Source of the DNA: Arcobacteraceae bacterium
GTDB lineage: Bacteria; Campylobacterota; Campylobacteria; Campylobacterales; Arcobacteraceae
Direction: 5' to 3'
DNA: 64,000 nucleotides
Assembly: GCA_963662945.1 (NCBI GenBank)
Contig: OY759974.1
Location: 192,001 to 256,000, forward strand
Shown here piece by piece: positions 2,858 through 64,000 of the stretch. The notes beneath the pieces were generated by a model. It was not told the DNA's origin. It did no database searches and was given only the letters and a program-made list of their open reading frames with translations. The translations under genes and the position numbers were made by a program. Numbering within the stretch: the first letter of the stretch is position 1; every line of letters begins with the position of its first letter.

Positions 2858-2858
2858 C

Positions 2859-3866: not shown

Positions 3867-3909
3867 ATTCTCTCCACTAATTTATTTATATATTTTATCA
3901 TAAAAGTTT

Positions 3910-6663: not shown

Positions 6664-7939
6664 TATTCTGCTCTTTTGTTTTTAAATAAAGGGCTAAAGT
6701 TATCCCATACAATATATAAAAATATATTTTTTCACTATCACCAAAAAAACTACCAAACATCATTGAAGACATATAACCTATAGTACCTAAAAAGATAAAT
6801 ATAACGTAAGGTCTATATTGATGATTATTTAAATATATATAATGTAATATCTTTAATAAATATCCTAGAAGTACTATAAATAGTAATAGTCCTATCAAAC
6901 CTAAGCTAAAAAAGATTGTCATATAGTCGTTATGTGCCTGTGCAAAAAGGCTATAAGGAATATTTTCTTTTTTATCCTCAAAAATTTTTTTAATACTTTT
7001 TCCATACAAAAATCTACCATATCCTTGAGGTGTAAATAAATCATCACCTCTATATAATAAAATAGATTTCCACATTGCCAATCTGGCAACTGTAGAATGT
7101 CCTAAATTATTTTCAATAACCAATTTATCATATTCACTTGGAGTATAGCTATCCATATGTTTTACTGCTGATATAATATTAAATGCATTATATCGTGTAT
7201 CAAAGTTTTTTGAATAAATTATAAAAGAAAGTATGGATAAAATTATAATTGTCAGAATACTATATTTCATAATTTTATTTTTATAAAATAACAAAAAGAA
7301 AAAAAATAAAATCATAACTGCTGCCACAAACGTTGCTCTGGTATTATTTGCAACAATTGAAACTAAAGTAATAACTAAAAAAAAGATTGCTATTTTTTTA
7401 TATTTTGTAAAAAATAATGCTATTGCTACAGCTAAGGAATATGTTACCCATATACCAAATCTTTCTCCTCCTCCACTATCTAGTAATCCACCTGCTCTAT
7501 AAGGCCATAGTCCATGTTCAAACCAAATATAAATATTTAATAATGTATGAAACCCTAAAGAAACTACTATGATAAAAAATATTTTTTGAATTTTTATATC
7601 ATCAAATTTATAAAAAAATAAAAAAATAATTAGTGATATTATAAAAGGTTTAACTAACTCACCTCTTATTTCACTTATTGTTTCTTTTGGCTCAATAGAA
7701 AAACCAATAGAAATAATGGATATCGTAATTAACCCAACAAGTAAAAAAAGATATAATTGGAAAGATAAAATTTTTCTATAATGAATATTTTTTAGTATTA
7801 AAAAAGAGAGAAGAACAAATAATACAAAAGAAATATTTTGAATAGCTGTTACTCTCGAAATCGGTAAGCTAAATAAAAATATACTCAAAAAAAATAAATC
7901 CAAAGAATACTTATTATTTATCTCTTCTAATTTCAACAA
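6650..7939 (-). CDS. waaL: O-antigen ligase family protein
   Basis: Many TM helices, NTRA motif, RLAMW, AHNDY (conserved His); inside the core cluster. Confidence 0.8.
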   Translation of the reverse strand: MLKLEEINNKYSLDLFFLSIFLFSLPISRVTAIQNISFVLFVLLSFLILKNIHYRKILSFQLYLFLLVGLITISIISIGFSIEPKETISEIRGELVKPFIISLIIFLFFYKFDDIKIQKIFFIIVVSLGFHTLLNIYIWFEHGLWPYRAGGLLDSGGGERFGIWVTYSLAVAIALFFTKYKKIAIFFLVITLVSIVANNTRATFVAAVMILFFFFLLFYKNKIMKYSILTIIILSILSFIIYSKNFDTRYNAFNIISAVKHMDSYTPSEYDKLVIENNLGHSTVARLAMWKSILLYRGDDLFTPQGYGRFLYGKSIKKIFEDKKENIPYSLFAQAHNDYMTIFFSLGLIGLLLFIVLLGYLLKILHYIYLNNHQYRPYVIFIFLGTIGYMSSMMFGSFFGDSEKIYFYILYGITLALYLKTKEQNIETN

Positions 7940-10899: not shown

Positions 10900-11631
10900 C
10901 TATAGTTTTTTATTTATAAGACTCTGTAACTTACTACTCCAAAGTAAGGCTGTATTTTCTTGTGATTGATGATGATCAACTTTATCTTTTATAATAAATT
11001 TATCATCAACTACATTCGTATCTTTATTCATTGTTTCTTCTGTAATATCAATATAATCAAGACCATATTTTATTGCAAGTAGTTTTAATTGTTCATTAAA
11101 TTTTAAGGTAAGACTTGTTCTTTCTAATTGCGTAGTTGATATTGTATCTCTCAATGCAACCTCACTACTATTTTTTTGTCCATCCCTTACTGTTGGCAAA
11201 ATTGCACCTGAGAGAATAATTCTTTTCTTATATGGCAACAATTCTTTTATTAGTAACTCATATCCTCTTATTGATATCGAAATATTATCATATGCACTAT
11301 TCTTATAATCTTGTGCTTTCTTCCATAAGATATAAGCACAATCAACTTCCCCTAATTGTATTATAATTGTATTATAAGTTTTAAACCTATTAAGCTCACT
11401 TAAAAAATGTTTTAATGTTTGACTTGATGAATTACTATTATTTAAACCATAAGCAGTTGCACCACCTACAACTTTAACATTTATCAAATGAGGTAATATT
11501 AAATTATGATCATTGATATACTCAAATACACCACCATGTGAATCACTAAGAACTAAAATTTTTTTACCATTTTGAAAATAGTTTATTAACTCTCGATATC
11601 TTTTTTGTAATGATTTTTTAATCTTACTCAA
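10900..11631 (-). CDS. SGNH/GDSL hydrolase-like protein
   Basis: VLSDSH (block I-like), GGATAYG, LGEVDC and C-terminal DHH. Confidence 0.55.
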   Translation of the reverse strand: MSKIKKSLQKRYRELINYFQNGKKILVLSDSHGGVFEYINDHNLILPHLINVKVVGGATAYGLNNSNSSSQTLKHFLSELNRFKTYNTIIIQLGEVDCAYILWKKAQDYKNSAYDNISISIRGYELLIKELLPYKKRIILSGAILPTVRDGQKNSSEVALRDTISTTQLERTSLTLKFNEQLKLLAIKYGLDYIDITEETMNKDTNVVDDKFIIKDKVDHHQSQENTALLWSSKLQSLINKKL

Positions 11632-35209: not shown

Positions 35210-35270
35210 ATTCTATCAAAACAATGTCACATCTAATGTCACATTTTTAATAAATTTTAAAATTTCAATT
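35210..35270 (-). promoter_or_regulatory. Conserved promoter/operator element, copy 1: tandem AATGTCACAT boxes plus extended -10 (TGaTAGAAT)
   Basis: 53/61 identical, without gaps, to 63730-63790; upstream of the minus-strand ORF 34201..35181. Confidence 0.75.
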
Positions 35271-48927: not shown

Positions 48928-50046
48928 TTATCCCCTAATATCTGGAACTTTTATCAAACTTTTTTCTATAAGTCCATTTTCTATATCTGTATGACAAGCT
49001 TTACAGTTTGCTTTAGATTTCACCTTTGCACTTGCAAAAATATCTTTATCTATTTTTTTATGTTTTTTTTCCCAATAAGGTGTTTTTGTTATAGCTATTG
49101 TACTATTATTTTCTTTGAGGCTTTTTAATATTTTAAAAGCTGCTTTATGTGTAGAATTTTCAGCACTATTTTTTTCTAAGAAACTAAGTATGGATAAATT
49201 TGTTTCCTTATCTATACTTGCATCATCTCCAAAATGATTTTCTAAATCACCCATCATAAGAGTCCAAGAGCTTTTAGGGAGTAAAAAAGGTGGATATGTT
49301 ATATGACAACTGCCACACTCCTTTGAAAAATCTTGATGTAACAAAGCATAGTCTTGTTTTATATTTGCACTAGCCACAAAAATATTGTCTTTTGCAAAAA
49401 TCAAATAATAAAGTGCATATAGTGAAGCTAGTATAAAAATCACACCCAATAACTTTTGAAAGAAATTAATTTTGATACTCACATCTTGTGATGTTTTTTT
49501 ATATCCATCAATCATTGATTCTATAGCATCACCTTTTTTTATAAACCTATCTATCAAACTTCCAGCAACATGTACAACAATCACAGCTAAAAATAGATTT
49601 GAGAGAAATTCATGTATCTCTTTAAAAAGTTCCATCTTTTTAAAATAATCACTATGTAAAAACGACAATATCCCATGATTTTCTTCAACTCCATAGACTA
49701 AAAGCCCAGATAATATGGTCAAAATTGCCAATACAATCATAGCTACAATGGCATAACTTGATGCAGGATTGTGTCCTAGATACTCTTTTGTTTTTGAAAA
49801 AGGGGAAAGTAGATACTCTTTCAAATCTACTAAATTAAAATTGAAATCTTTAAATTTAGAGTGTTTAGGCCCTATATAACCCCAAAAAACTCGAAATAAA
49901 AATACAACTCCCAGAGCAAGACCAAAAGCTACATGATAAGATAATAACTCATCAAAATCAGCTAAAACATAACTAACTGTAAAAAAGAGTATCATTAATA
50001 TATGCGATACTCTGTTAAACAAAGGCCAAATATAACTTTTAGTCAT
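48928..50046 (-). CDS. Cytochrome b/b6 domain fused to diheme cytochrome c (start revised to ATG at 50046)
   Basis: IWPLFNRVSH, GHNP and IHE TM histidines; C-terminal ECGSCH and NCKACH. Confidence 0.88.
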   Translation of the reverse strand: MTKSYIWPLFNRVSHILMILFFTVSYVLADFDELLSYHVAFGLALGVVFLFRVFWGYIGPKHSKFKDFNFNLVDLKEYLLSPFSKTKEYLGHNPASSYAIVAMIVLAILTILSGLLVYGVEENHGILSFLHSDYFKKMELFKEIHEFLSNLFLAVIVVHVAGSLIDRFIKKGDAIESMIDGYKKTSQDVSIKINFFQKLLGVIFILASLYALYYLIFAKDNIFVASANIKQDYALLHQDFSKECGSCHITYPPFLLPKSSWTLMMGDLENHFGDDASIDKETNLSILSFLEKNSAENSTHKAAFKILKSLKENNSTIAITKTPYWEKKHKKIDKDIFASAKVKSKANCKACHTDIENGLIEKSLIKVPDIRG

Positions 50047-50530
50047 CCCATCTTCCATAGTTTGGTATTTTAATTGCTCTTTCACTGTATATTCCTTTAT
50101 CTGCTGTTGTATGACAAGCCATACAATTACTAAGTGTTCCAACCTCTTTTTGTGTTATCATTCTTTTTGGTATCTCATTATGTTTTTTTATAAAATATGC
50201 AACTTCAGTTATCTTTAGTGGTATTTCATTTGCCCTTATAGAGTTAGTTATTTTTCTACTTCTTTTATACTCCATAGCTTTTTCACTACTATTTGCTTTT
50301 AAATAGTTAAGTATCGTATTATAATCCTCTTTTGCTAAGGTAGCATCTGTATTAAAATGATTTTCTAAATTATTCATCATCTTTACCCAAGAACGCTCTG
50401 GTAAAAGACCAGCTTGAAAAGCAAAATGACAACTTCCACACTCTTTTATGTACAATTGATTATTCACAGGTTTTACTCCACTAGCAAAAACAATTGTTGT
50501 CAATAATATACTTAAAATTAATTTTTTCAT
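50039..50530 (-). CDS. Diheme cytochrome c (DHC)
   Basis: Signal peptide; ECGSCH, LPERSW, LENHF and NCMACH motifs. Confidence 0.9.
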   Translation of the reverse strand: MKKLILSILLTTIVFASGVKPVNNQLYIKECGSCHFAFQAGLLPERSWVKMMNNLENHFNTDATLAKEDYNTILNYLKANSSEKAMEYKRSRKITNSIRANEIPLKITEVAYFIKKHNEIPKRMITQKEVGTLSNCMACHTTADKGIYSERAIKIPNYGRWDD

Positions 50531-50541
50531 AGTCTATCCTT

Positions 50542-50959
50542 CTATTTTGAGTTGATGTAATACAATACATCACCTTTTTCTTGAGCAGTTCCCTCTCTAT
50601 TATATACATCTTTAAAATTTCTTCTTAACCATTTTTCAACATCTTTTACATTAGTTAGTCTAGTTGAATTTTTATTTGGAGAAAGAGGTTCAATAAGTTT
50701 ATTTGTAAAAACATTTTTCCCATTGTTGTTAAATCAATATTATGACAACTTGTACAAGATATCTTTTCACCTTTTTTCCCTATATGTGAAGTTGTAAATA
50801 TTTTCTCACCCTCTTTCACACTAAAATCCACAAAACCACCATTCTCTTTTTTCGCTTCTATTTTTAAACCATTTATATATTCTTGCATACTTGAATTAAA
50901 CTGTGCTGCAAATATATTTGTATTGTAAATCAACAGAAATCCTATCATTATTTTTTCAT
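50542..50959 (-). pseudogene. DUF1924/SHP-like monoheme cytochrome c with two apparent 1-nt deletions
   Basis: AAGGA then ATG AAA AAA TAA at 50959 (A6; A7 would restore MKKIMIG). After SCTSCH the conserved tail GKNVFTNKLIEPLSP...VEKWLRRNFKDVYNREGTAQEKGDVLYYI continues in another frame to TAG at 50542. Confidence 0.8.
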
Positions 50960-51023
50960 TTTTTTCCTTTATATTTTTATTATCATAACTTTATTCCTAA
51001 TTTGTAAAATGAAATAATACATA

Positions 51024-51045
51024 TCTTTACAATTTCTTTACAATT
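51024..51045. promoter_or_regulatory. Perfect 11-bp tandem repeat (TCTTTACAATT)x2, candidate OmpR/CpxR-type binding site
   Basis: Minus strand reads GTAAA-N6-GTAAA upstream of the cytochrome/two-component operon. Confidence 0.6.
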
Positions 51046-51109
51046 AAAGCTAACTTAAAAATATAATATAGTAGACTAAAAATTCAATTTAAAAAAAGGT
51101 CTCTAGTAT

Positions 51110-53152
51110 ATGGTTAAAAAAGATGTAATAAATTTAAAATCAATGGATACTCTACAATTTATTGTAGATGGCATAGATGCAATTATTTACATTATTGATA
51201 TTGAAACTTATGAAATCTTATATGCAAATTATCACTGTCAAAAAGAATTTGGCAATGTTCTTGGTAAAACTTGCTACAGTGTCCTACAAAAAGATAAACG
51301 ACATGCATGTGAAGAATGTGCTCTTTTTAATAATACCTATTCTAAAGAAATAGGAGCTACTTATAAATGGGAGCATTATAATAGTATAAATAACAAACAT
51401 TATATATTTAGTGATAGAATTACTCTTATTAATAATAGAAAAGTAAAAATTCAAGTTGGAATTAACATCTCTAAACAAAAAGAATTAGAAAATCAAATTC
51501 TTGAGCAACAAAGTAAAAATTTAGAAACCTTTGAAGCCTTATCAAATTCAACAATTGAAGGCTTAATTATCTATGATGAAAATAAAAAATGTATTAAAAC
51601 AAATACTGTAGCACCACAATTACTTGGCTATACAGATGAAGAGATGTTAGGTAAAAATGCTTTTGAGTTTATTGCTTATGAATCTATAAATCATGTAAAA
51701 AAAGTTATTAAGAATACAAATCAAGAACCTTATGAAGCAGTTATGCTACGAAAAGATGGTACAAAGTTTCCTGCTATTTTAAGAGGAAAAGATATACAAC
51801 TTGAAGGAAAAGAGATTAGAGTTTCTGCTGTTATGGATATAACGAAGATTAAAGAAAAAGAGGAAGAAATTTTAAAGCTTGCATATTATGATTCTTTAAC
51901 TTCTCTTCCAAATAGATCTTTATTAGAAGACAGAGCTAGTCGTCTTATAAATAAAAATGGAAGAAATAAAAACTATGGTGCTTTGATGTTTGTAGATTTG
52001 GATAACTTTAAAAATATCAATGATACAAAAGGACATATTGTTGGTGATCTCATTTTAGTGGAATGCGCCAAGAAACTTTCCAAAACTATAAGAAAATATG
52101 ACACTGTTGCAAGATTTGGTGGAGATGAGTTTGTCATACTTATTGATACTCAACATAATGATAAAAATTCTGCTGTTAAAAGTATCCGTACTGTTGCAAA
52201 TAATGTTTTAACAAAATTATCACAACCTCTTACTGTTGAAACTAATGAATATCAACTCACTGCAAGTATTGGTATTGCTATTTTTAATGACCATATTACT
52301 TTTGATGAACTTATGAAGCGTGCAGATAGTGCAATGTATCATTCTAAAGATAAAGGAAAAAATAACTTTAGTTTTTTTGATCCAAAACTTCAAAAAGAGA
52401 TAGAAAGAAAAACAATTATTACCGAAAAACTTAGACTGGCAATCAAAAATAAAAAAATTATGGTACATTATCAAAAACAATTTAATCAAGAACAACAAGT
52501 AGTGGGTGCTGAAGCACTCTTACGATGGAATGATAAGGTTTTAGGATATGTAAGTCCTGCTGAATTTATAAATATAGCAGAAGAAAGTGATTTAATTTTA
52601 CAACTAGGTGATTATGTTATTGAAGAATCTATAAAACTTCTTAGTAGTTGGGAAAAAGATAAAATTAAAAAAGATTGGAGAATTTCTGTAAATATAAGTA
52701 TAAAACAATTTGAAAAGTCTAATTTTGTCAAAAATGTAGAAAATAATATTTTCAAATATAATATAGTCCCAAATAAATTAAGATTGGAGTTTACAGAAAG
52801 TTTACTCTTCAAAAATACTGACAAAGCTCTTGAAAAGATACATTATCTTAAGAACTTAGGATTAACTCTTTCTATTGATGATTTTGGTACTGGTTATTCT
52901 TCTTTATCATACCTAAAGAAACTACCAATTGATGAGCTAAAAATAGATAAATCATTTATAGATGATATTCTTACTGATGAAAATGATGAAACAATTGTCT
53001 TAGCTATACTGTCTATTGGAAAAAAATTTGGTTTTGAAGTTATAGCAGAAGGTGTTGAAACAAAAGAGATGTATGAAAAACTACTTACTTTGGGATGTGA
53101 GTATTTTCAAGGTTATTATTTTGCTAAACCAATGCCGCAAGAAGAACTCTAA
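51110..53152 (+). CDS. PAS-PAS-GGDEF-EAL diguanylate cyclase/phosphodiesterase
   Basis: PAS motifs (LLGYTDEEMLGK, RKDGT), intact FGGDEF, EALLRW and DDFGTGYSSL. Confidence 0.93.
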   Translation: MVKKDVINLKSMDTLQFIVDGIDAIIYIIDIETYEILYANYHCQKEFGNVLGKTCYSVLQKDKRHACEECALFNNTYSKEIGATYKWEHYNSINNKHYIFSDRITLINNRKVKIQVGINISKQKELENQILEQQSKNLETFEALSNSTIEGLIIYDENKKCIKTNTVAPQLLGYTDEEMLGKNAFEFIAYESINHVKKVIKNTNQEPYEAVMLRKDGTKFPAILRGKDIQLEGKEIRVSAVMDITKIKEKEEEILKLAYYDSLTSLPNRSLLEDRASRLINKNGRNKNYGALMFVDLDNFKNINDTKGHIVGDLILVECAKKLSKTIRKYDTVARFGGDEFVILIDTQHNDKNSAVKSIRTVANNVLTKLSQPLTVETNEYQLTASIGIAIFNDHITFDELMKRADSAMYHSKDKGKNNFSFFDPKLQKEIERKTIITEKLRLAIKNKKIMVHYQKQFNQEQQVVGAEALLRWNDKVLGYVSPAEFINIAEESDLILQLGDYVIEESIKLLSSWEKDKIKKDWRISVNISIKQFEKSNFVKNVENNIFKYNIVPNKLRLEFTESLLFKNTDKALEKIHYLKNLGLTLSIDDFGTGYSSLSYLKKLPIDELKIDKSFIDDILTDENDETIVLAILSIGKKFGFEVIAEGVETKEMYEKLLTLGCEYFQGYYFAKPMPQEEL

Positions 53153-53237
53153 ATTTTCCTATTGATTTAATTTTATAAGTAGAGTTAAACACATAATATT
53201 GTAAACTCCACAAAATTTTATCACACGTAAGGATAAT

Positions 53238-54578
53238 ATGAAGAATATTAGTATATTTGGAACATCCTCCGATGCAGGGAAATCAACACTCACTTTTGTA
53301 ATAGCAAAAATTATTCAAGATTTAGGCTATAGTGTAGTTCCATTCAAAGCACAAAATGTATCTAATAATTCAAAAGTTTGTGATGATAACAGTGAGATAG
53401 CAATAGCTCAACACTTTCAAGCTGAAGTACTTGGAGTAAAAACCTCCTATCATCTTAATCCCATTCTATTAAAATCTGGTCGTGCAAATTCTGCTTCTTT
53501 GATAGTTGAGGGGAAAGTTGTATCTGATAAAGATGTAAGAGAATATTATAGAGATTTAGATTTACTTAAACCAGCTGTTGATAGATGTTTTAAGTATCTC
53601 AATGAACAATATGACTGTGTAGTGTGTGAAGGTGCAGGAAGTCCAGTTGAACTTAATCTTATGGACAAAGACTTGTCAAATATCTACATAGCAGATACTT
53701 ATGATACAAAAATTATACTTGTAGCAGATATACAAAAAGGTGGTGTTTTTGCTTCTATTTGGGGGGTTTATAATCTTTTACCGCAAAAACTTCGTGAAAA
53801 TGTTATAGGTGTTATTGTCAATAAATTTCAAGGAGATATGACACTTTTTGATGAAGGTGTTAGAATTATTGAAGAAGATTTTAAAATACCCGTTTTAGGA
53901 GTATTACCATATTTACCATTTAATTTAGGATTTGAAGATAGTGCAAGTCTTAAAAACTTTACTCAAAATTGTAAAAATGCTACGAAAAAAGTTGCTGTTA
54001 TTAACTATCCTTATATGAGTAACTATAATGATTTTGAGCCATTAATCGCAGATGAAGATATTTGTTTAGAGTTTATAACTTCCAATGTAGATTTAAATAA
54101 ATTTGACTTAGTAATACTTCCTGGTTCAAAACTAGTTATACAAGATTTACAATGGCTTAAAAACAATGGACTTTTTGAACAACTCAAAAATACTACAGTA
54201 GAACTTTTTGGTATTTGTGGTGGTTATGAGATGATGTTTGAAAAGATTATTGATGAACAATGTATTGAAAACACTACACCAACAATTGAATCTGGTTTAG
54301 GTTTTATAGATGATAATATCATCTTTCAAAGTGACAAAGTGCTGAAAAGAGAATTATACAGTATGTTTAAGAATAATTACGAAGGATTTGAGATACATCA
54401 AGGCATTAGTAAAAAACATCCACTCTATTTTGAAAAAAACAACATCAAAGGAACTTTTGTCCATGGCATCTTTGATGATGAAAAATTTAAAATTTATAAA
54501 GAAAAAACTCTTAATGAGTTTATAAATACTATGAAAGGAAAATTAGATATAGATAAGATTATATCTAGTATAATGTAA
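53238..54578 (+). CDS. cobQ: Cobyric acid synthase
   Basis: GTSSDAGKS, PFKAQN, EGAGSPVELNL, ICGGY and FEIH motifs. Confidence 0.93.
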   Translation: MKNISIFGTSSDAGKSTLTFVIAKIIQDLGYSVVPFKAQNVSNNSKVCDDNSEIAIAQHFQAEVLGVKTSYHLNPILLKSGRANSASLIVEGKVVSDKDVREYYRDLDLLKPAVDRCFKYLNEQYDCVVCEGAGSPVELNLMDKDLSNIYIADTYDTKIILVADIQKGGVFASIWGVYNLLPQKLRENVIGVIVNKFQGDMTLFDEGVRIIEEDFKIPVLGVLPYLPFNLGFEDSASLKNFTQNCKNATKKVAVINYPYMSNYNDFEPLIADEDICLEFITSNVDLNKFDLVILPGSKLVIQDLQWLKNNGLFEQLKNTTVELFGICGGYEMMFEKIIDEQCIENTTPTIESGLGFIDDNIIFQSDKVLKRELYSMFKNNYEGFEIHQGISKKHPLYFEKNNIKGTFVHGIFDDEKFKIYKEKTLNEFINTMKGKLDIDKIISSIM

Positions 54579-54579
54579 C

Positions 54580-57500
54580 ATGATAAAATCACTTATAAAA
54601 TTTGGTTTAGAAAAACCTATCTTAAATTATATGCTTCTTTTTTTTATATTTATACTTTCTGTATTTTCATACTTCAAAATACCAAAAGAGATATTTCCAC
54701 CATCAAATCTTGATGCTATTTCTATTACAGGAAGTTATCCAGGTGCAAGTAGTGATATACTCGATCTCATGGCTGTATCTAAAATTGAAGATGAGTTAGC
54801 AAATTTAAGTGAAGCAGATACTATTACAACTGTTGTTAAAACTGGTTATTTTAATATCCGAATTGATTTAAAAGAGGGAAATGATCTTTCAAAGCTTTTA
54901 GATGATGTAAAAGATATAGTCACAAAAACTCGTTCTGACTTACCAAGTGATATGGATGAACCAATAGTAAAAGAGATAACTTTTTCTTTTCCTCTTATTA
55001 CAATAGCTGTATTTGGAGATAAAACAAATGAAGAGTTACTTCAAATTTCAGATGATATAAAATCAAAAATAAATACTCTTGGGGATTTAAGTGATATAAC
55101 AATCTATGGAGATAGTGACAAAGAGTTACTAATCACTTTTGATGAAACAAAAATTGATGCATTTGGTTTAAATAAAAATGCCGTAATCAGTGCTATTGCA
55201 GCTACGAGTTCCATTTTCCCTGCAGGTATTATCAAAGATAAAGGAACTCACTATTATTTAAGCAGTCAAAATGGAGAAAAAGATATTCAAAAACTCCAAA
55301 ATATGATTATCAAAATAGGAGATACCTCTATTTACCTTAAAGATATTGCAAAAGTTGAATATAAACTTGCAGATGTAAATACCATCTCTCATTTTAATGG
55401 ACAAAAAAATATCTCTATAGGTGTAAACAAAAGTAAAACGGGAGATAGTATAGCTTTAGTTAAACAAATAAAACAAATACTTAAAGAGGAACAACAAAAC
55501 TATACAGGTGTAACATTTGACACTTATACAGACACTTCTGTTTGGATAAAAAACAGACTTAACACAGTTGTATCAAATATACTTTTTGGACTTATACTGC
55601 TTACTATTGCTTTGTTTTTCTTTATTAATGCACGTATAGCTTTTGTAGTCGCTGTTGGAATACCAACTAGTTTTATGATTGGAATTATTGGTGCCGAACA
55701 ATTAGGCTATAGTCTTAATATGCTTTCACTTTTAGGAGCTCTTCTTGCACTTGGTATGCTTGTAGATGAAGCAATTGTTGTAGGGGAAAATATCTATAGA
55801 CACCTTGAGATGGGAAAAGATAAGATGACAGCTGCATTAGATGGTGCTGTTGAGATGTATCCTGCTGTTTTAACTGCAACAGCAACTACTATCTTTGCAT
55901 TTTTACCAATCTTACTTATGAGTGGAGAGACTGGTGTATTTATGAGAATACTTCCTATTATGATCTCTATCCTACTTTTAAGCTCACTACTTGAGGCATT
56001 TTTCTTTTTGCCACTTCATGCAAAACATACTTTACAAGTCAATCATAGTGAAAAAAAATCAGAATCTATCTGGGAATGGAATAAAAATCTTTATAAAAAT
56101 ATATTAGATTTTGTACTTAAATGGAAATATCTTTCTCCAATTATTCTTACAGTTTTTATTATTATTGCAACAATAAGTTTTGCGAAAATTTTAAAATTTG
56201 AATTTATGCCAGAATTTGATACTACACAAGTATATATAAATGGTAGCGTTGGTGTAGGATACGATATAAAAGAAACTGAAAAAAAGATTTATGCCTTAGA
56301 AAAAAAGATACTTGAAAACTTTGAATTAGGAAATGAAATAGATAGTATAAGTTCAGTTATAGGAATGAAACTAGATGGAAAACAGCTTCCACAGAATGAA
56401 GAGTTTTATTTTCAAATTTTTGTAAACTTACAAGAAAGAGCACCTGAAAATGTGTTTGATAAATATATCAATCCCTATTTAAGTCCAAAATATGATGATA
56501 CAGATATGACAAGAGTTGAATCTGCAAAAACTATCTCAAATAATATTTCAAAACTTATCAACCAAAGTGATATTCAAAAAGAGTTTGAAGAGTTAAAAGT
56601 GTATGTTCCAGGAGCTGGAATAGTCAAATATGACATAGAAATCAGTCTTAGTGGTAAAGATGATAAAGAGTTAAGTAATGCAATTCAAACAATCAAAACA
56701 GAACTTGGCAAAATAAAAGGTGTTAAAAATATAGCAGATGATGTACTTCTTGGAAATCTTGATTTAAAATTTTCTATCAATCCTTATGGGCAATCTCTTG
56801 GATTTACTGAAACTGATGTTGTAAATCTTTTGAAACCATACTATTTTAAAGGTAATTTTTCTAAAATGTATGATGATAGTGGTATTGTAGATATAGTATT
56901 TCAAAGTGTAAACAAAGATATAAAACAAAGTCTTGACAGCTTTGAAGTAACTATACCTAACACAGATACAAAAGTGCTTTTAAATGATATAGTTGAGTTT
57001 AAAGCAAAATCAAGCCTAAGTCAAATTTTCAAAGAAGATGGTGTAGCAATACAAACTATCACAGCTTCACTTGATGGTCTTACAAGTACAGAATTATATG
57101 CTCAACTGAATCCTACTTTAGAAAAACTCAAAGATAAAGTAAAAATAGATATCAAAGGGGAAGAGAAAGAAAACAAAAAAATACAAATAGAAATGGGGCA
57201 AGCTTTTATTATAGCTTTATTACTTATTTTTATCTCTTTAGTGTGGATGTTTGATAGTCTTGTAAAATCACTTGTAATCTTAAGTACAATTCCACTTTCA
57301 GTTCTTGGAGTTTTAGTTGGGCATTTTATCATGGGATTAAATATCACTATGCCAGGACTTATAGGTATGGTTGGACTTGCTGGGGTTATTGTAAATGATG
57401 GGATTATTATGATGGATTTTATCCAAAAATCAAAAGATGTAGAAGAGATGAAACAATATGCACTTTTAAGACTCCGCCCTATTCTTCTTACATCACTTAC

Positions 57501-57663
57501 AACAATTTTAGGTCTGAGTACTTTAATGTTCTTTGCTTCAGGGCAATCACTTATATTACAACCGATGGCTGTATCTTTAGGATTTGGGATACTTTGGGCT
57601 ACGATTTTGAATTTGTATTATGTTCCTATGTTGTATAGGATTATTTATTTGAGGAAAGAGTAA
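54580..57663 (+). CDS. RND efflux permease (AcrB/CusA superfamily)
   Basis: 1027 aa; YPGAS, GMLVDEAIVVGEN, GVIVNDGII and RLRPILLT motifs. Confidence 0.93.
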   Translation: MIKSLIKFGLEKPILNYMLLFFIFILSVFSYFKIPKEIFPPSNLDAISITGSYPGASSDILDLMAVSKIEDELANLSEADTITTVVKTGYFNIRIDLKEGNDLSKLLDDVKDIVTKTRSDLPSDMDEPIVKEITFSFPLITIAVFGDKTNEELLQISDDIKSKINTLGDLSDITIYGDSDKELLITFDETKIDAFGLNKNAVISAIAATSSIFPAGIIKDKGTHYYLSSQNGEKDIQKLQNMIIKIGDTSIYLKDIAKVEYKLADVNTISHFNGQKNISIGVNKSKTGDSIALVKQIKQILKEEQQNYTGVTFDTYTDTSVWIKNRLNTVVSNILFGLILLTIALFFFINARIAFVVAVGIPTSFMIGIIGAEQLGYSLNMLSLLGALLALGMLVDEAIVVGENIYRHLEMGKDKMTAALDGAVEMYPAVLTATATTIFAFLPILLMSGETGVFMRILPIMISILLLSSLLEAFFFLPLHAKHTLQVNHSEKKSESIWEWNKNLYKNILDFVLKWKYLSPIILTVFIIIATISFAKILKFEFMPEFDTTQVYINGSVGVGYDIKETEKKIYALEKKILENFELGNEIDSISSVIGMKLDGKQLPQNEEFYFQIFVNLQERAPENVFDKYINPYLSPKYDDTDMTRVESAKTISNNISKLINQSDIQKEFEELKVYVPGAGIVKYDIEISLSGKDDKELSNAIQTIKTELGKIKGVKNIADDVLLGNLDLKFSINPYGQSLGFTETDVVNLLKPYYFKGNFSKMYDDSGIVDIVFQSVNKDIKQSLDSFEVTIPNTDTKVLLNDIVEFKAKSSLSQIFKEDGVAIQTITASLDGLTSTELYAQLNPTLEKLKDKVKIDIKGEEKENKKIQIEMGQAFIIALLLIFISLVWMFDSLVKSLVILSTIPLSVLGVLVGHFIMGLNITMPGLIGMVGLAGVIVNDGIIMMDFIQKSKDVEEMKQYALLRLRPILLTSLTTILGLSTLMFFASGQSLILQPMAVSLGFGILWATILNLYYVPMLYRIIYLRKE

Positions 57664-57665
57664 GG
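57557..57665 (+). repeat. Direct repeat copy 1: last ~35 codons and stop of the RND gene
   Basis: 108/109 identical to 58294-58402. Confidence 0.95.
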
Positions 57666-57703
57666 GGGAAGGTTTTTATTTTTTTAGAAGTTAATTTGTA
57701 AGG

Positions 57704-57970
57704 TTATGGAAAATACTTATATATTTCTCTTCTATGTTTTACAGTTTCTATTATGATTGTATCATTCTCTTTTTTGATACCAACTCTATAGTCCCCAAAC
57801 CTTATTTTAAAATAGTTTTTATATCCTGTCATTTTTTCAACTTTACCTATTTCACTTAAACTCGTATATGTTGGGAAAGTATCAAATACAAATTCTTCAA
57901 TAGTTTGTCCATATTCAGTTGGTAATTTTGAAAGTTCTTTTAAAAACTTCTTTTTGTATTCAATATTCAT
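57704..57970 (-). CDS. Type II toxin, RelE/StbE family
   Basis: 88 aa; KKFLKELSKL, FKIRFGDYRVG and HRREIYK motifs. Confidence 0.88.
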   Translation of the reverse strand: MNIEYKKKFLKELSKLPTEYGQTIEEFVFDTFPTYTSLSEIGKVEKMTGYKNYFKIRFGDYRVGIKKENDTIIIETVKHRREIYKYFP

Positions 57971-57975
57971 TGATA

Positions 57976-58182
57976 TTATGAAGCTTTATTTTCTTTTAGT
58001 GATTTGTAGTATTCTTTTGCATCTTTTATAGATAATGTTTCATTTTCTTCATTTTCTTCCATTAGTTTATATAATGCAAAGTTTTCTAAAGTTTCTGTAA
58101 TTTGTTCATAAGTTTTCATATCTAACTGAACAGCAATTTTATGATTTTCGTCATCTACGATATAGTTTGGATTTATACACAT
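57976..58182 (-). CDS. Cognate antitoxin
   Basis: 68 aa, acidic, directly upstream of the toxin; NYIVDDENHKIAVQL N-terminus. Confidence 0.75.
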   Translation of the reverse strand: MCINPNYIVDDENHKIAVQLDMKTYEQITETLENFALYKLMEENEENETLSIKDAKEYYKSLKENKAS

Positions 58183-58293
58183 ACTATTCTCCTATAATTT
58201 ATTAATAATCCATTATATCAAATCTTAAATAAGTTTCACTTAAGATTAAATTTTTAATCTATACAATTTTTATTCTAATTTATATTTACATAC

Positions 58294-58402
58294 TACAACC
58301 GATGGCTGTAGCTTTAGGATTTGGGATACTTTGGGCTACGATTTTGAATTTGTATTATGTTCCTATGTTGTATAGGATTATTTATTTGAGGAAAGAGTAA
58401 GG
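58294..58402 (+). repeat. Direct repeat copy 2: orphan 3' end of the RND gene
   Basis: One mismatch to copy 1 (57574 T vs 58311 G); similarity continues through GGGGAAGGTT after a 3-nt indel. Confidence 0.95.
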
Positions 58403-58414
58403 AAGGGGAAGGTT

Positions 58415-58477
58415 ATAATACACTACCTGTTAACTTTACCGACACTTTAGTCTTTTCTACTAGGTTTTGTTAACTAT
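58415..58477 (-). mobile_element. Truncated attC-like site (left arm only) at the hamB stop codon
   Basis: Minus strand ATAGTTAAC-AAAACCTAGTAGAAAAGAC; the AAC core overlaps the TAA stop; exact reverse complement of GTTAACTAT at the cassette start; no right arm before the RND repeat. Confidence 0.5.
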
Positions 58478-61400
58478 TTTCCTCAATAAGATTCGGGTTT
58501 CTTAGTTCCATAGACCAATTTTCATTAAAATTATCGTACATAAAGCATACTCCCATATTGTTTCCTACACTATTAAACGGTAAAGAATCTGTGGATTCAA
58601 CAGCAATTTTTGTTTTAAAGTCTGGACTACATAAAAAAACACTTTGTTCATTTTTTCTAATATTTAAAATATTGCTTTCTATTGTTTCCGATATTTTTTT
58701 CAAAGTGAAATTACTAACTTTAGGAATGTCTATACTATTGATATAATTCTGTTCTATTTCAAATATAGTTATCCATTCAGATGTAACAGGTAAACAGTAT
58801 TCAATTATTTTTTCTTGGTTAGAAATAATCAAGTTGAATAGTTTTCTTTTACTAACATCAACCAAATCACTATTGATTATCCCACTTAAATCTAATGAGG
58901 CAACTCTTGATCTTATTCCTGAAAGATATATTTTAACTGCAAAAATATTAGGTAGTCCAATTTCTGAAAAAAGAGCAATGTTCTCAAGTATCTCTGCCTC
59001 ATTATCTAAACTCATATCATACAATTTTCTAATAATTGCATTTAGAGCCCACGGTATAGTCATACCAAAATACTCGACACAAATTTTTTGACCATTATTG
59101 ATTTGTTTTATCTCTGCTAATGAAACCCCACTAAACCATTTTTCTCTAACTAAATCAACGTCAGTCTCTTCAAAATTATGTTTAAATGAAGTAGATGGCA
59201 TTTGTTGTATTAAGCTTTCAATTCTTTTTATTGTTTCAATAGTATCTGTAATGTTTTTTTCTGACTGATTATAAGTTTGAACTATTTCTTTTATTTCCTC
59301 AATATGTTCTTCAATCAAAACTGATGAACTTAATGGGATACCTGATTTTACAATTGATTCCCAATTACTTGAATCTCCTGCAATCCTTACTACGGCTTTA
59401 TTTCTTGCTTTTAAAAATTGTATTACTTCTTCTTGAGTTATGTTTGACTCATTTTGTGCCTGAATATAGGCTAATGAGTTTCTAAAATAATCATCTATCC
59501 ATGAAGAAGGATCAGCATCAAAAAATGCTACCTTTTTATAATCTAATGCTAGTAATGTATCATCAATCCAGTTAAAAGCTTCAAGAATATTTTCTGAATA
59601 ATTAGTCGTTGTTGTAGTTAAACGAGAAAAGTTATTTTCTGAAATCAATTGAAGCAATAGGTCAAAATCAATATTACATTGTGTTGCAATATTTTTTATT
59701 CTTTTTATTAAAAATAGTAAACCACTTGTGGCTTTATCCATATTTGAGATGTCAAAATATTGATTTATCATTTCAAAATCTTTCTTTAATTGCCATTGAC
59801 CTTTATTCTCATCTATTCCAAAAAGTATCTTACCTTCAATATCAACAAAAGCTCGTCCAGCTCGTCCTGCAATATTCCAAAAATCTTTTGAATCAATTTT
59901 CTCTCTTTTATTTGATTGCTGATTAAATCTAAAAACATCTGCAAATATTACTGTGGAGATACCAATATTTACACCTTGACCCAAAGTTGTTGTAGCAACA
60001 ATAACTTTGGGCTTTTCTTCACGCATCATTTTTTCCAATAAAATTCTCACTTCAGCTGATAATTGACCATGATGACAGAAGATACCATGTTCTGCAAGTT
60101 CAAAAATATCATTTTCACCTGATTCAATACAAGCTAATTTTAAAGACTTTTGATTAATTGTATTTTTCCATTGCATGTATTCTTTATTATTCATATGATT
60201 TAAAATTCTTCTAGCATTAGATAAAACTTGTGTTGCTTGAGCTACAAAAAACAAAACAGTACCCAAGGTCGATAATTTTAAAGCTGTTGATGCGAAACCA
60301 TCATATTTACTACTACTTTGCTCTACAAAACCTTTATTAAAAGATTTTGGTTCTTCTATCCATTCTATATCAATATTCTTACTTCTAGTCCACTTTAGTA
60401 TTCCAAATCTTTGATTGGCTAACCTTTTTTTAGATTCTAAAATATTATTTTCGTCATTTGAAATCCACTTTGAAATGTCTTTTGTATTTGGTAAAACAGC
60501 AGATAGCAAAATAATCTTTCCATTGTTTTTATTCATATGAAACTTCAATTCTTCAGTAAACATCTCATTTTGAATTAATCTTTGATTCGCACCTAAAAGA
60601 TGCCCTTCATCAATGACTAAAAGTTTGATTTGATCTCCAATTGATTCGTCGGCTCTAATTATCGCTTTTGCTTTTTCAGGTGTTGCAATAATAATATTTG
60701 AATGTTCTATGAGTGTTTTATCTATTTTACTGTATTGAGCACCACCATATAAGAAAGTCGTTGAAAATCCTAGTGGACTGAAAATTTTATCCATTGACTC
60801 TTCTACTTCAAATGATAGTGAACGAAAAGGAGCTAAATATAATACTTTTGACTCAGGATTATTTACTAAGGTTTCTAAAATTGCAATTTCTGCTATTCTT
60901 GTTTTTCCACTACTTGTAGGTAAACTTATCACGATGTTGTTATTATTTCTCATTGCATTAACAGCTTCATATTGAGTATAAAAAAGTTCGATTATTGAAG
61001 GATTGTTAAACGCTAATTGTTGAATATATAAAGTTGTTTTATCACTTGGTATTAAAGTTGGTAAAATATTCCAAAAAGAGTATTGTTTGTATGTGTTTAA
61101 CAGAATTGATATTAGCCTACTTATCCACCAAGTCAAAGGCTCATCATCAATAGAAGATAACGCTTTTAAGTCAAGCGTATATTCTTGGGCTAAGTCTAGC
61201 CATTGTTCGTCGCCAGAATAAATATACTCAATTACAAGATTTAATACTTTTGCTAAAATAACAGTGTAAAATTTAAAATTTGCATCCATAGAATCGTCTA
61301 ATGAGACAATTTGTTCTTCTTGAAACTCATCATTCAAAACAATATCATTAATTTTCAAAACTAAATCATCTATGTCTTTTTTTAAAAAAGTGCTTACTAT

Positions 61401-61808
61401 ATCAATAAATTTAGAGTTTGATTCAGCCTTTTTTATTGCAATAAACGATTTAGAATATTGTGAAGCAATATAAAAAGACAAACTGCTTATTAGCAAATAG
61501 AAATTACTGTTTTCCTTTTTATTATTTCTTGGCGAGTGAACTTGATAAATAATATCTCCGCTTTTTTCAAAAGCAATATTTGATATTTCGTGATGGACTT
61601 GCTGTTCTTTTAATGTACATGCTATAGATAGGTAAGAAAATGCTATATAATTAATCTTTTCATCAAGATTCTCTGTGTAGTTTGGGAAATTTTCAAATGG
61701 TTCATTTGCTTCAAGCAATATGTTCTTTGAGCTTGCTTGTGCAATTAGGTTCTGTGTAAATGTATCTTCTAATTCATTAAATAATAATAGTGCTTTTTCA
61801 ACTGTCAT
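58470..61808 (-). CDS. hamB: Ski2-like DEAD/DEAH helicase, Hachiman HamB
   Basis: LPTSSGKT, DEGH, LLSAV, HHGQL, ATTTLGQGVN and AGRAGR motifs; long helical N-terminus; 1 nt downstream of the HamA-like gene. Confidence 0.8.
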   Translation of the reverse strand: MTVEKALLLFNELEDTFTQNLIAQASSKNILLEANEPFENFPNYTENLDEKINYIAFSYLSIACTLKEQQVHHEISNIAFEKSGDIIYQVHSPRNNKKENSNFYLLISSLSFYIASQYSKSFIAIKKAESNSKFIDIVSTFLKKDIDDLVLKINDIVLNDEFQEEQIVSLDDSMDANFKFYTVILAKVLNLVIEYIYSGDEQWLDLAQEYTLDLKALSSIDDEPLTWWISRLISILLNTYKQYSFWNILPTLIPSDKTTLYIQQLAFNNPSIIELFYTQYEAVNAMRNNNNIVISLPTSSGKTRIAEIAILETLVNNPESKVLYLAPFRSLSFEVEESMDKIFSPLGFSTTFLYGGAQYSKIDKTLIEHSNIIIATPEKAKAIIRADESIGDQIKLLVIDEGHLLGANQRLIQNEMFTEELKFHMNKNNGKIILLSAVLPNTKDISKWISNDENNILESKKRLANQRFGILKWTRSKNIDIEWIEEPKSFNKGFVEQSSSKYDGFASTALKLSTLGTVLFFVAQATQVLSNARRILNHMNNKEYMQWKNTINQKSLKLACIESGENDIFELAEHGIFCHHGQLSAEVRILLEKMMREEKPKVIVATTTLGQGVNIGISTVIFADVFRFNQQSNKREKIDSKDFWNIAGRAGRAFVDIEGKILFGIDENKGQWQLKKDFEMINQYFDISNMDKATSGLLFLIKRIKNIATQCNIDFDLLLQLISENNFSRLTTTTTNYSENILEAFNWIDDTLLALDYKKVAFFDADPSSWIDDYFRNSLAYIQAQNESNITQEEVIQFLKARNKAVVRIAGDSSNWESIVKSGIPLSSSVLIEEHIEEIKEIVQTYNQSEKNITDTIETIKRIESLIQQMPSTSFKHNFEETDVDLVREKWFSGVSLAEIKQINNGQKICVEYFGMTIPWALNAIIRKLYDMSLDNEAEILENIALFSEIGLPNIFAVKIYLSGIRSRVASLDLSGIINSDLVDVSKRKLFNLIISNQEKIIEYCLPVTSEWITIFEIEQNYINSIDIPKVSNFTLKKISETIESNILNIRKNEQSVFLCSPDFKTKIAVESTDSLPFNSVGNNMGVCFMYDNFNENWSMELRNPNLIEENS

Positions 61809-61809
61809 A

Positions 61810-62793
61810 TTAGCTCATTATCTTTTCAATAGCTTTATCAAAACTTTCTTTGATTAAAACTTCAGGATTTTTCTCACCATATGATATTACAACTAGATTT
61901 TCATTATCTGTATTCAAATGTGTTTCTATTGTATTTGCAACATTGTGGTTACTATGTAAAAATCCAGCATATACTATAGGTATATTTTTTTTGTGTACTG
62001 CACTGATTAAATCATCAATTTCATCAGCAATATCATTTTGTCCTAATTCATCAAGTCGGTCTCTTACAAAAGGTAATGAGATTGGTAAGCTATCTTTGGA
62101 CAATGCTTTCGTTATATCTTCAACAACTATATTATTTGGTGTAGTTCTATATTTAGACTCTCCCATAATAATTTTATTTTTAATGTTATTTTTATCAAAA
62201 AGTAATACATCATCACCTTTCATTGACTGAACAATATTTGGGTTGAATCTTAACTTATAAACCAATAATTCAAGTCCTGATGATGCTTTTAAATATTCAC
62301 ATAATATTATTTCACCTAAATTACCTTTTTGAGTGGAGAAGTTATTTATTGGTATTGTCATATTCTCTTCAACATACTTTGTAAGTTCATTATGTTTTTT
62401 CAAAATCGATTTCTTTTTATTAAATCTCTCAATTTGCTTAGCTGTAATGTGATGTTCAATTATCCAATCAGATAACTTTTCAATTAGAGTATCTCTATTA
62501 ATTCCCTTATCACTGAGTTTTCTATGTTTTTTAGTCATAGATGAGGCGAGATCTTCACATTTACACCAGTCAAAAAACAATGCTGATTTTGGATGATTTC
62601 CAATGAGAGCTGTTATTTCATCAAGTTCTTTCGAGGTATTGTTAAAATTAGTTGCGGCAAGAGAACGACATTTTGATTCTAATTCAGAAATGGAGTTAGG
62701 TGAGATATGATACTTTATAGCTAAAGCATTTATATCTAATTTTTTACCATTTGTAAGAGCTTCTAAAATTTCATGTTCTAAATCAATTTCCAA
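61810..62793 (-). CDS. hamA: Hachiman HamA (DUF1837-like nuclease) with N-terminal extension
   Basis: GNLGEIILCEYL, KLRFN...SMKGDDVL and MGESKYR (D...ExK nuclease pattern); TTG start after AAGGA. Confidence 0.78.
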   Translation of the reverse strand: MEIDLEHEILEALTNGKKLDINALAIKYHISPNSISELESKCRSLAATNFNNTSKELDEITALIGNHPKSALFFDWCKCEDLASSMTKKHRKLSDKGINRDTLIEKLSDWIIEHHITAKQIERFNKKKSILKKHNELTKYVEENMTIPINNFSTQKGNLGEIILCEYLKASSGLELLVYKLRFNPNIVQSMKGDDVLLFDKNNIKNKIIMGESKYRTTPNNIVVEDITKALSKDSLPISLPFVRDRLDELGQNDIADEIDDLISAVHKKNIPIVYAGFLHSNHNVANTIETHLNTDNENLVVISYGEKNPEVLIKESFDKAIEKIMS

Positions 62794-62809
62794 GACTATC
62801 CTTTTGTAT

Positions 62810-62941
62810 AGTTAACGACTGAAGTGTGGAATGATGGGAATAGTCGTATATAAATATCTATTTTTCTAGTTTCTAAATGCAAAATTAAAAGCTAGTATAA
62901 TCGCCGTTATAGCCTCATTTATCTTCTCTTTTTTGTTATAC
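62810..62941 (-). mobile_element. attC-like recombination site (~132 bp imperfect palindrome)
   Basis: Minus strand: GTATAAC (R'')...AAATGA...CTAGCTTTTAAT/TTTAGAAACTAG inner stem...TCATT...CAGTC-GTTAACT (R'); lies between co-oriented ORFs. Confidence 0.6.
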
Positions 62942-63689
62942 ATTTGTTTGCTAATTTAAAATAACTACTACATTTAGGTGTTGTATTAGTGTCATATTTC
63001 AAAATAACTTTATATTCATTAATTGCAAATTTAATGGTATTAAATAAAAAATCCATTCCCTTTTTATATGTTGCTATTACAATTATAGCAACTAATATGT
63101 AAATTAACATTTGAATAGTTATTTCTATATTTACTATTGAAAAATCATTAATATTTATATTTGATTGTTTATTAAATTTAATAATAAATTGTTTAATAAA
63201 AATTGTATATCCCAACCAAGAAGTACTTACTATCCATCTTAAAGCTTTGATTCTTTCATTAGTTCTTGAATATATTATATTTATATTATTTTCAATACTT
63301 TCTAGAAGATAAGTAGTTTTTATATTATTTTGATATAAAATATTTACAATTTTTTCAATATGCTTATTTTCTATTCCATAAAAAGCATATGTACTAGGAA
63401 TAGCAAAAAATACTAAAGATGTAAAAGTAACTATAACTAATATAGTGTTCTCCAATTTCATATTTATAAATAAATTACAAATATAAATAGCTATGATTGT
63501 TAGTAATAATATTTTTATAAATTTACCTAGTGGACTAAATAACTCTTTAAATCCTAATAGCATATATCCTGCTGGCAATCTGTAATCTTGATCTATAGAC
63601 TTAAAAGTAGGTTTGAATGATTGTAATAAGTTTTTTTCACTTTCTTGTATAATATGTTTAGTAAGTAAAAATAATTTATTCTCTGTCAA
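62919..63689 (-). CDS. Hypothetical membrane protein (about 4 TM), putative cassette gene
   Basis: 256-aa ORF with GGAGG RBS and TTG start; four hydrophobic segments; stop falls inside the attC-like element. Confidence 0.7.
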   Translation of the reverse strand: MTENKLFLLTKHIIQESEKNLLQSFKPTFKSIDQDYRLPAGYMLLGFKELFSPLGKFIKILLLTIIAIYICNLFINMKLENTILVIVTFTSLVFFAIPSTYAFYGIENKHIEKIVNILYQNNIKTTYLLESIENNINIIYSRTNERIKALRWIVSTSWLGYTIFIKQFIIKFNKQSNININDFSIVNIEITIQMLIYILVAIIVIATYKKGMDFLFNTIKFAINEYKVILKYDTNTTPKCSSYFKLANKCITKKRR

Positions 63690-63729
63690 GTCTATATTCC
63701 TCCTATGCGTATGTATTTAAACACAAACA

Positions 63730-63790
63730 ATTATAACAAACAAATGTCACATCTAGTGTTACATTTTTGATAAATTTTAAAATTTCTATT
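63730..63790 (-). promoter_or_regulatory. Conserved promoter/operator element, copy 2 (extended -10 TGtTATAAT)
   Basis: 53/61 identical to 35210-35270 with the same spacing between boxes and -10. Confidence 0.75.
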
Positions 63791-63795
63791 GATTT

Positions 63796-64000
63796 TTATA
63801 AGGGCTTGTTTTGATTAAAAATATTTAAGATAACTATCATATTGCTATCTAAATCAATCTCATAATTTATAGTATATTTTTTAAATATCATATCTCTGAT
63901 ATTTTCATCATAAAATAGATAGATTTTCTATATTTATATGGAAAGTTTGGAATATTTTTTATTTGTTAAAATAACTCTTTTTTGAACTTTTTTGAAGCAG
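63796..64000 (-). pseudogene. RelE/ParE-family toxin pseudogene (3' part)
   Basis: ASKKFKKELF*QIKNIPNFPYKYRKSIYF/DENIRDMIFKKYTINYEID...IFNQNKPL*; in-frame TAA at 63966-63968 and a 1-nt deletion near 63911. Confidence 0.7.

Follow-up and report, generated by a model that had tools for sequence, protein, structure and literature searches.

A complete Hachiman operon on a probable integron cassette with decayed attC sites in an Arcobacteraceae genome

The window considered here is a stretch of 64,000 nucleotides (G000:C1:192001-256000) from the genome of an Arcobacteraceae bacterium (assembly GCA_963662945.1; 2.50 Mb in a single contig, 28.9% G+C), and on its minus strand lies hamAB, an operon encoding the two proteins of the Hachiman anti-phage system. 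Considerable confidence can be placed in the reading that hamAB is a Hachiman system on an integron cassette of 4382 bp, the second unit of an array opened by the cassette of a gene termed orf256, with the attC sites of both cassettes decayed and hamAB most likely frozen in place. An earlier interpretation made without database searches, referred to below as the sequence-only reading, had proposed an integron-type hamAB cassette in an array lacking an integrase, and this core proposal is borne out by the integrons of the same genus, by partial attC matches at the borders of the operon, and by homologous operons that are flanked by intact attC sites. Positions are those of the window unless a genome (G) or another locus (L) is named.

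Both frames of the operon are open and full length, and the genes form a type I Hachiman pair:

61810-62793, minus strand: hamA, 327 aa, a DUF1837 protein with a TTG start (PF08878 match; PDLC00155 at 8e-100)
58470-61808, minus strand: hamB, a 1112-aa helicase (PDLC00192, E=0, 1278 bits)

In the PADLOC profile search the alignment of PDLC00192 to HamB spans profile positions 1-1101 of 1104, and a Pfam search places DEAD, ResIII and Helicase_C domains in the same protein; the two PADLOC profiles confirm the HamA/HamB assignment made by the sequence-only reading. The hamA stop and the hamB ATG are separated by 1 nt, and the hamB stop TAA occupies 58472-58470. The nearest HamA homologues are metagenomic, with one at 75% identity named Aliarcobacter butzleri, and as these proteins are full length at 74-89% identity, they back the TTG start of hamA (62793). 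Hachiman protects via the HamB helicase and the HamA nuclease acting on DNA. Judged by its sequence, hamAB is a complete, intact type I Hachiman system, for which protection is predicted.

The genome belongs to a little-studied integron population. An integron integrase is encoded at G000:C1:545688-546632 on the minus strand (TIGR02249, 403 bits, cut-off 265), about 290 kb from hamAB, and intI genes above this cut-off occur in 12 of the 28 genomes of the genus, this one included. A characteristic attC of 68-70 nt, with the layout xxxTAAC, AAAAC, a palindrome around CCCTGCGGC, TCAAAC and GTTAxxx, is found beside the intI of this genome and in arrays of G013 and G043. Clusters of attC sites without an integrase are frequent in the genus: a genus-specific, narrow covariance model made from four of its attCs (R1) has matches at E<=1 in 19 of the 28 genomes, including the intI-less G006 (9 matches), G011, G015 and G020 (8 each). 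The collected matches amount to 53 sites, 45 of them unique, of 67-135 nt, with a long class of 131-135 nt. All 53, including three from elsewhere in this genome, were used for a broader model (R2), which finds 10 attC sites genome-wide at E<=1 (21.8-80.2 bits, nine of them at 35-80 bits), distributed over the integron (two), 2435836-2438010 (four), 559-2301 (three) and 1980950-1981018 (one). The integron itself is small (G000:C1:545682-549600), consisting of intI and about three cassettes without assigned function, and besides it the genome has two integrase-less attC clusters and one lone attC. Matches to the left half of an attC at genome positions 93303 and 94047 (17.4 and 14.1 bits) may mark a further decayed array.

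An integron cassette begins at G/TTRRRY, within the core-site consensus RYYYAAC/GTTRRRY. Around hamAB the corresponding features are as follows:

62919-63689, minus strand: orf256, opening cassette of the array, with its stop within the 132-nt site below
62810-62941, minus strand: putative fossil attC of the orf256 cassette, 132 nt; R'' GTATAAC (62941-62935), R' GTTAACT (62816-62810)
62794-62815, minus strand: cassette start, TTAACT of the R' box followed by a 14-nt leader
58428-58475, minus strand: putative fossil attC of the hamAB cassette, 48 nt; R'' AGTTAAC (58475-58469), R' GTTAACA (58434-58428)

The 5' boundary reads G/TTAACT, and the cassette extends from T62815 to G58434 on the minus strand, over 4382 bp. 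The word GTTAACTAT (62816-62808, minus strand) and the word ATAGTTAAC (58477-58469), which contains the hamB stop, are exact reverse complements over 9 bp; AGTTAAC (58475-58469) pairs 7/7 with GTTAACT, and 9/9 when the flanking bases are added. The operon points toward its own attC relic, and GTTAACTAT is separated from the TTG by no more than the 14 nt ACAAAAGGATAGTC, which include the ribosome-binding site AAGGA. For 62794-62950 a consensus scan, a weak instrument for an organism of this type, listed no promoter on the minus strand. The sequence-only reading had described these border words, their positions, the overlap with the stop, the 9-bp complementarity and the leader, all of which hold, and it had noted correctly that both core sites are one base off the consensus. 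Many genuine attCs of the genus deviate likewise. GTTAAC is scarce in the window (7 occurrences, 16 expected), and three of the seven lie at the hamAB borders (58429, 58469, 62811). Genome-wide the hexamer is about 3.7-fold under-represented (225 against 833 expected from base composition), a pattern such as a restriction system targeting it might produce.

The borders were further compared with the attC family through weight matrices for 26-nt left and right half-sites, trained only on attCs of other genomes (42 left halves and, after removal of two that were mis-anchored, 40 right halves; the three sites of this genome were left out) and scored at every genome position on both strands, about 5 million positions. 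Three half-sites stand at the borders:

62916-62941, minus strand: left half, 17.0 bits, genome rank 10, at the 3' end of orf256
62810-62835, minus strand: right half, 10.0 bits, genome rank 30, just upstream of hamA
58450-58475, minus strand: left half, 13.5 bits, genome rank 23, at the hamB stop

Left-half ranks 1-8 all fall in model-supported attCs or the integron array. The coding strand carries all three border halves, and each of the two left ones overlaps a stop codon; the upstream left and right halves together span 132 nt, in keeping with the 131-137 nt of the long attC class. With 26 nt trimmed from each end, the remaining spacer core aligns to the long attC L057:654-786 with a z of 6.2, the benchmark being two genuine long attCs aligned to each other (z 6.9); the other three comparisons with this spacer gave z 1.0-2.4. 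R2 finds 62810-62941 as its best match in 50000-64000 (20.2 bits; E 0.014 within these 14 kb, not significant genome-wide) and scores 58428-58475 at 11.6 bits. The border sequences thus read as significant partial matches to the attC family of the genus, and the 132-nt element as the decayed attC of the preceding orf256 cassette.

Homologous hamAB operons with complete attCs, which the sequence-only reading had suggested looking for, exist on metagenome contigs, with the attCs on both sides in L148 and L153 and at the hamB stop in L151:

L148 (HamA 70%): attC at 1626-1694, 86.9 bits, ending CAGTCGTTAACT; hamB-stop attC at 5892-5950, 29.6 bits
L153 (HamA 61%): attC at 6784-6851, 37.9 bits, ending CCGTTAACT; hamB-stop attC at 11161-11227, 41.8 bits
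L151 (HamA 68%): no attC found before hamA; hamB-stop attC at 4809-4868, 22.2 bits

Two more attCs lie upstream in L148 (82.4 and 73.4 bits), and the L153 sites are within an array of at least five. In both loci hamAB sits between attCs with AGTTAAC/GTTAACT borders as it does here, and GTTAACTAT directly follows the intact attCs; AAAATAGTTAACAAAACCT at the hamB stop is invariant in all five loci aligned. Identity with L147 (HamA 75%) runs from AGTTAACTATACAAAAGGATAGTCTTG, which is the R' box GTTAACT with one preceding base, onward, and the sequences are unrelated upstream of it. Together these loci would form a clear series of fossilisation, from L148 and L153 through L150 (HamA 71%) to the present locus. 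The hamB of L148 is spread over two overlapping open reading frames (ORFs; 2530-3447 and 3387-5897), which suggests a frameshift or an assembly error. At L153 11-3874, between attCs at 11-78 and 3820-3874, a viperin-like gene (pVip, 89 bits) accompanies a gene for a 744-aa ATPase (mad3/mad8-like), and this unit is a candidate for a second large two-gene defence cassette, of 3.7 kb.

Decay is apparent from the pairing of the two arms of each site. The arm duplex energy of the 45 genuine attCs has a median of -12.8 kcal/mol (range -18.8 to -6.9), with 89% of them beyond the 1st percentile of 2000 random genomic 133-mers. The upstream site, taken in the scripts as 62810-62942 (133 nt), reaches -5.9, equalled by 31% of the random 133-mers, and the downstream site -6.8, while the attCs of the L148 and L153 cassettes lie at -9.7 to -13.4. 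At 48 nt the downstream site is also shorter than every one of the 45 genus sites (67-135 nt); compared with the homologous attC of L148 and L150 it has shrunk, its left arm is altered and about 6 nt beside R' are gone. Both border sites are concluded to be fossils, and since both attCs have lost the arm complementarity needed for a recombinogenic hairpin, the hamAB cassette is most likely frozen in place. The sequence-only reading had attributed immobilisation to the loss of the right arm of the attC; attC decay is confirmed, but the hamAB attC is not merely without a right arm. The same reading had seen an imperfect palindrome of about 132 bp, and a stretch bounded by TAAC and GTT does exist at 62810-62941, but it is not a palindrome in energetic terms. 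The stretch was also considered as a working hairpin and folded on both strands, where it did no better than shuffles. The attC-like R/L folding anticipated for it is therefore absent; the related attC sites anticipated in the genus do exist, and homologous hamAB loci do share the borders.

The surroundings of hamAB were compared with 40 other genomes (24 of the same genus, 16 of the same order) and then base by base with G006, G009 and G013. The features around the operon are these:

54580-57663, plus strand: acrB, AcrB-family RND (resistance-nodulation-division) pump (PF00873, 4e-139), the conserved left flank
57555-57665: direct repeat copy 1, the last ~108 nt of acrB with its stop codon
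57704-57970, minus strand: parE-like toxin gene (PF05016, 1.8e-10)
57976-58182, minus strand: relB-like antitoxin gene (PF18506, 5.9e-25)
58292-58402: direct repeat copy 2 (to 58427 when the ~24 nt also present in G009 are added); the G009 homology stops next to GTTAAC 58429-58434
63729-63797, minus strand: proximal junction, where homology with G006, G009 and G013 resumes; it reads TGTAACACTAGATGTGACA, then TGTTATAAT (63738-63730)

The acrB gene is about 86% identical in G006, G009 and G013; homology ends at the acrB end and returns at 63729-63730, and the block inserted relative to these genomes (58428-63729) includes orf256. On the right, core genes follow for DUF234, Fur, BamD-like, Lon and rhomboid protease proteins. 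The operon sits in a variable hotspot between acrB and this core-gene block, with the following cargo:

G013: a single 343-aa ORF
G009: a 3.95-kb block of cytochrome c peroxidase, cytochrome c, DsrE-family, Crp-family and transglutaminase-like proteins
G006: the 3.95-kb block of G009 and three further ORFs
this genome: relB/parE, hamAB and orf256

The hotspot of G006 holds an attC (30.9 bits with R1, 42.5 bits with R2) and further half-sites. This version of the hotspot (L011 4453-6432) is a live-looking attC array with a DUF805 protein, an HNH_2 nuclease and a 120-aa ORF; G006 gave no intI match at E<=1e-60. For orf256 no family match was returned by Pfam, PADLOC or NCBIfam, and a comparison with the 258-aa cassette ORF of L148 found the two unrelated.

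The repeat of the acrB 3' end is exact over 91 nt (57575-57665 = 58312-58402), about 111 nt in total with one mismatch, and its copies bracket relB/parE. A like duplication is found in G006 (L011) and in G009 (L012 3292-3405 and 7352-7480) around the 3.95-kb cargo, which has no recombinase. The toxin-antitoxin pair was itself considered as a cassette, a status that is not supported: no attC half-sites above 6.5 bits lie near relB/parE, and the toxin-antitoxin module of G018 (L014) has no attC halves above 8 bits. At the proximal junction TGTTATAAT forms an extended -10 directed into the array, and GTTATAA (63737-63731) resembles an R' core. The motif, which includes AATTTTAAAATTTATCAAAAATGTAACACTAGATGTGACA and then TGTTATAAT on the minus strand, is multi-copy, occurring also at 35223-35266 and at genome positions 590139-590177, 2373181-2373211 and 1343686-1343724; the homology breakpoints of the four genomes fall just past its GTTATA(A/T) core, and R2 scores 12.9 bits on the plus strand at the junction copy. 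It may represent a promoter plus operator, or a secondary recombination site. No tRNA was found around the right junction. At ~64010-64275 in window numbering, on the minus strand, there is a small antitoxin-like ORF followed by a toxin ORF reduced to about 14 codons; G009 has an intact version of the pair (L012 7617-7898 and 7888-8145), G006 lacks both, and the region matches many places in the genomes of the genus. No IntI is encoded within the window or the next 10 kb. A divergent tyrosine recombinase lies at 70241-71509 on the plus strand (L227 6241-7509; 25 bits, Pfam cut-off 27.1), and an attC right-half match (13.7 bits, genome rank 8) falls at 70337-70362, inside the 5' end of its gene. 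As a degenerate intI this gene was rejected, given its 25 bits, the lack of a TIGR02249 match and the core genes in between. The absence of a local integrase claimed by the sequence-only reading holds to this extent, as the nearest recombinase is below cut-off and beyond core genes, but the genome search did find an intI at a distance.

If the border sites were still working attCs, IntI acting in trans could excise and move hamAB, and the locus would be a live CALIN (cluster of attC sites lacking integron integrases). An intact intI is indeed present in the genome, the R''/R' boxes are perfectly complementary, and a by-eye reading of the alignment allows some bulged L''/L' pairing. When the whole molecule is folded, the genuine long attC L043:706-840 is also no better than its shuffles (z -0.4). 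The weak arm duplexes, the shortness of the downstream site and the R2 scores (20.2 and 11.6 bits, where nine of the ten matches in the genome reach 35-80 bits) nevertheless make a live array improbable. Some of the same observations, and several others, weigh against an integron origin as such. The region 62805-62945 folds at -4.8 kcal/mol on either strand, where 173 and 180 of 200 shuffles are at least as good; the bottom strand of 62808-62943 reaches -4.5 kcal/mol (z +1.25), and overall the folds of the upstream site are beaten by 173-183 of 200 shuffles. The downstream site, at -3.0 to -3.5 kcal/mol (z -0.74), is no better than shuffles. For comparison, the bottom strands of six genuine attCs fold at -8.6 to -16.4 kcal/mol, four of the six being beaten by none of 200 shuffles. 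R1, run over the whole window with filters off, finds nothing at either hamAB border (none at or above 10.8 bits), and both sites lie below the genome-wide threshold of the covariance models, under all ten R2 sites. Among the relatives, L150 has only a weak left half (8.4 bits), no attC was found in L147, L149 and L152, and the distant hamAB loci (34-56% identity) gave no R1 matches in the 11 tested of 80, a weak test as R1 is genus-specific, nor repeat arrays in the four examined; these distant loci (at or below 56%) come from Photobacterium, Aliivibrio, Colwellia, Tolumonas and others. The G009 and G013 versions of the hotspot have no attC-like sites, and integron recombination does not account for the duplicated acrB 3' end, for which the candidates are an att-type insertion or a homology-anchored import.

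Taken to its end, this line of doubt would hold that the resemblance is accidental, the border words being AT-rich accidents and hamAB having arrived only by homologous recombination of its flanks. Taken alone, the 9-bp inverted repeat is weak, being within chance: the window contains its 9-mer 3 times where 1.29 would be expected (at least 3 in 12 of 100 shuffles), and of the 1077 genome ORFs with 300 aa or more, 30 (2.8%) have a perfect inverted repeat of 9 bp or longer shared by their upstream 40 nt and their stop region. Two copies of the 13-mer ATGTATAACAAAA exist in the genome, against about one expected by our own estimate from composition, and both sites are sub-threshold for both models. 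Coincidence would nonetheless have to account for three independent half-sites of high rank on the right strand and in the right order, with the left halves on stop codons, for a spacer core homologous to a genuine long attC, and for the same borders beside intact attCs in L148, L153 and L151; it is strongly disfavoured, to the point of being very hard to credit. A different matter is the route of arrival, where the alternative complements the cassette reading rather than replacing it: the unit of acrB 3' end, hamAB and orf256 may have been imported whole, through flank-anchored recombination or an att-type insertion, and not by IntI at this place. This is a serious possibility that falls somewhat short of an even chance. 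The 111-nt acrB copy directly adjoins the hamAB attC relic, the same duplication surrounds a different, recombinase-free cargo in G006 and G009, and with the acrB ends of G009, G006 and G013 the second copy shares 94.8-97.4% identity, where the whole gene shares about 86%. A 2025 paper (PMC12614218) also links natural transformation to cassette shuffling in chromosomal integrons. On the other side, no donor with acrB directly followed by hamAB exists among the 41 genomes searched by DNA, and the attCs of G006 at the same position make local IntI activity possible as well.

Under the preferred reading of a decayed integron cassette, the history of the locus can be outlined as follows. A hamAB cassette family would circulate in the attC arrays of Arcobacter-like Campylobacterota, and IntI would once have inserted one such cassette. 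Both attCs would descend from the attC family of the genus and would then have lost their arm complementarity, the cassette remaining immobile despite the IntI encoded about 290 kb away. As the start codon follows R' after just 14 nt that include a ribosome-binding site, hamAB would be transcribed by read-through from the putative promoter TGTTATAAT (63738-63730) via orf256, a step suggested by sequence features alone, and defence would presumably be exerted on DNA by the HamB helicase and the HamA nuclease.

Anti-phage systems are reportedly also carried on mobile-integron cassettes, as described by Kieffer et al. In the integron cassettes of sedentary chromosomal integrons, Darracq et al. 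(10.1101/2024.07.02.601686) count 783 defence systems, 73% of them in Vibrio, and describe them as small, never of more than two components, and interpreted as streamlined. A review (PMC13434031) summarises this work together with that of Kieffer et al. The word Hachiman has no occurrence in the main text of the Darracq preprint (10.1101/2024.07.02.601686), whose supplementary tables may list it, and a literature search judged by titles and abstract openings revealed no paper on a Hachiman cassette or on integrons of this bacterial group. Cassette-borne defence is itself already known, having been published in 2025 as small systems mostly in Vibrio; notable here are the size of the cassette, the host group and the series of fossilisation. 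With the intact metagenomic relatives, the locus suggests that a complete Hachiman operon travels as one cassette of 4.3-4.4 kb in a different phylum, and it would illustrate how decay of its attC turns a cassette into a permanent component of a chromosomal defence island. Some defence islands without visible mobility genes may accordingly be old integron arrays, and genus-specific attC models may recover histories that are invisible to generic tools. More tentatively, and with rather less than even confidence, it can be proposed that the integrons of Arcobacter-like Campylobacterota shuttle full-size multi-gene defence systems, that junctions of the acrB type serve as landing pads for IntI acting in trans, and that the landed cassettes fossilise; the shuttle part of this proposal rests on the 4.4-kb Hachiman cassette and the 3.7-kb viperin-like/ATPase cassette of L153. 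If true, it would break the rule of the small, streamlined cassette drawn mainly from Vibrio, the GTTATAA core with the outward-facing promoter at the acrB-downstream junction would be a secondary landing pad that expresses cassettes, and landed cassettes would later turn into ordinary-looking defence islands.

Compared with known systems, the operon itself is that of type I Hachiman in that both proteins match the PADLOC HamA1/HamB1 profiles nearly end to end and the genes are adjacent on one strand, whereas the HamA clade found here has about 55 additional N-terminal residues, most homologues covering 81-84% of HamA. With the cassette-borne defence systems of Darracq et al., as their main text presents them, it shares promoterless genes, a 5' R' core, a 3' attC, placement in arrays and at most two components, and it differs in its 4.4 kb, its 1112-aa helicase, its Arcobacter-like Campylobacterota host and its decayed attCs. 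As in a CALIN, which the sequence-only reading had likened it to, two attC-derived sites lie 4.4 kb apart in the orientation of the genes and with no integrase nearby, and clear CALINs exist elsewhere in the genome and the genus; unlike in a CALIN, neither site folds or reaches significance with a covariance model, so a standard run would probably not call the locus, which reads as the remnant of a CALIN. From a complete integron it differs in that intI is not adjacent to the hamAB array. Chromosomal defence hotspots flanked by core genes are a general concept, and the locus fits it, as no two of the four compared genomes have the same cargo between acrB and the DUF234/Fur/Lon block; it departs from that concept in that some of the cargo turnover carries the signature of integron recombination, together with a duplication of the 3' end of the flanking gene.

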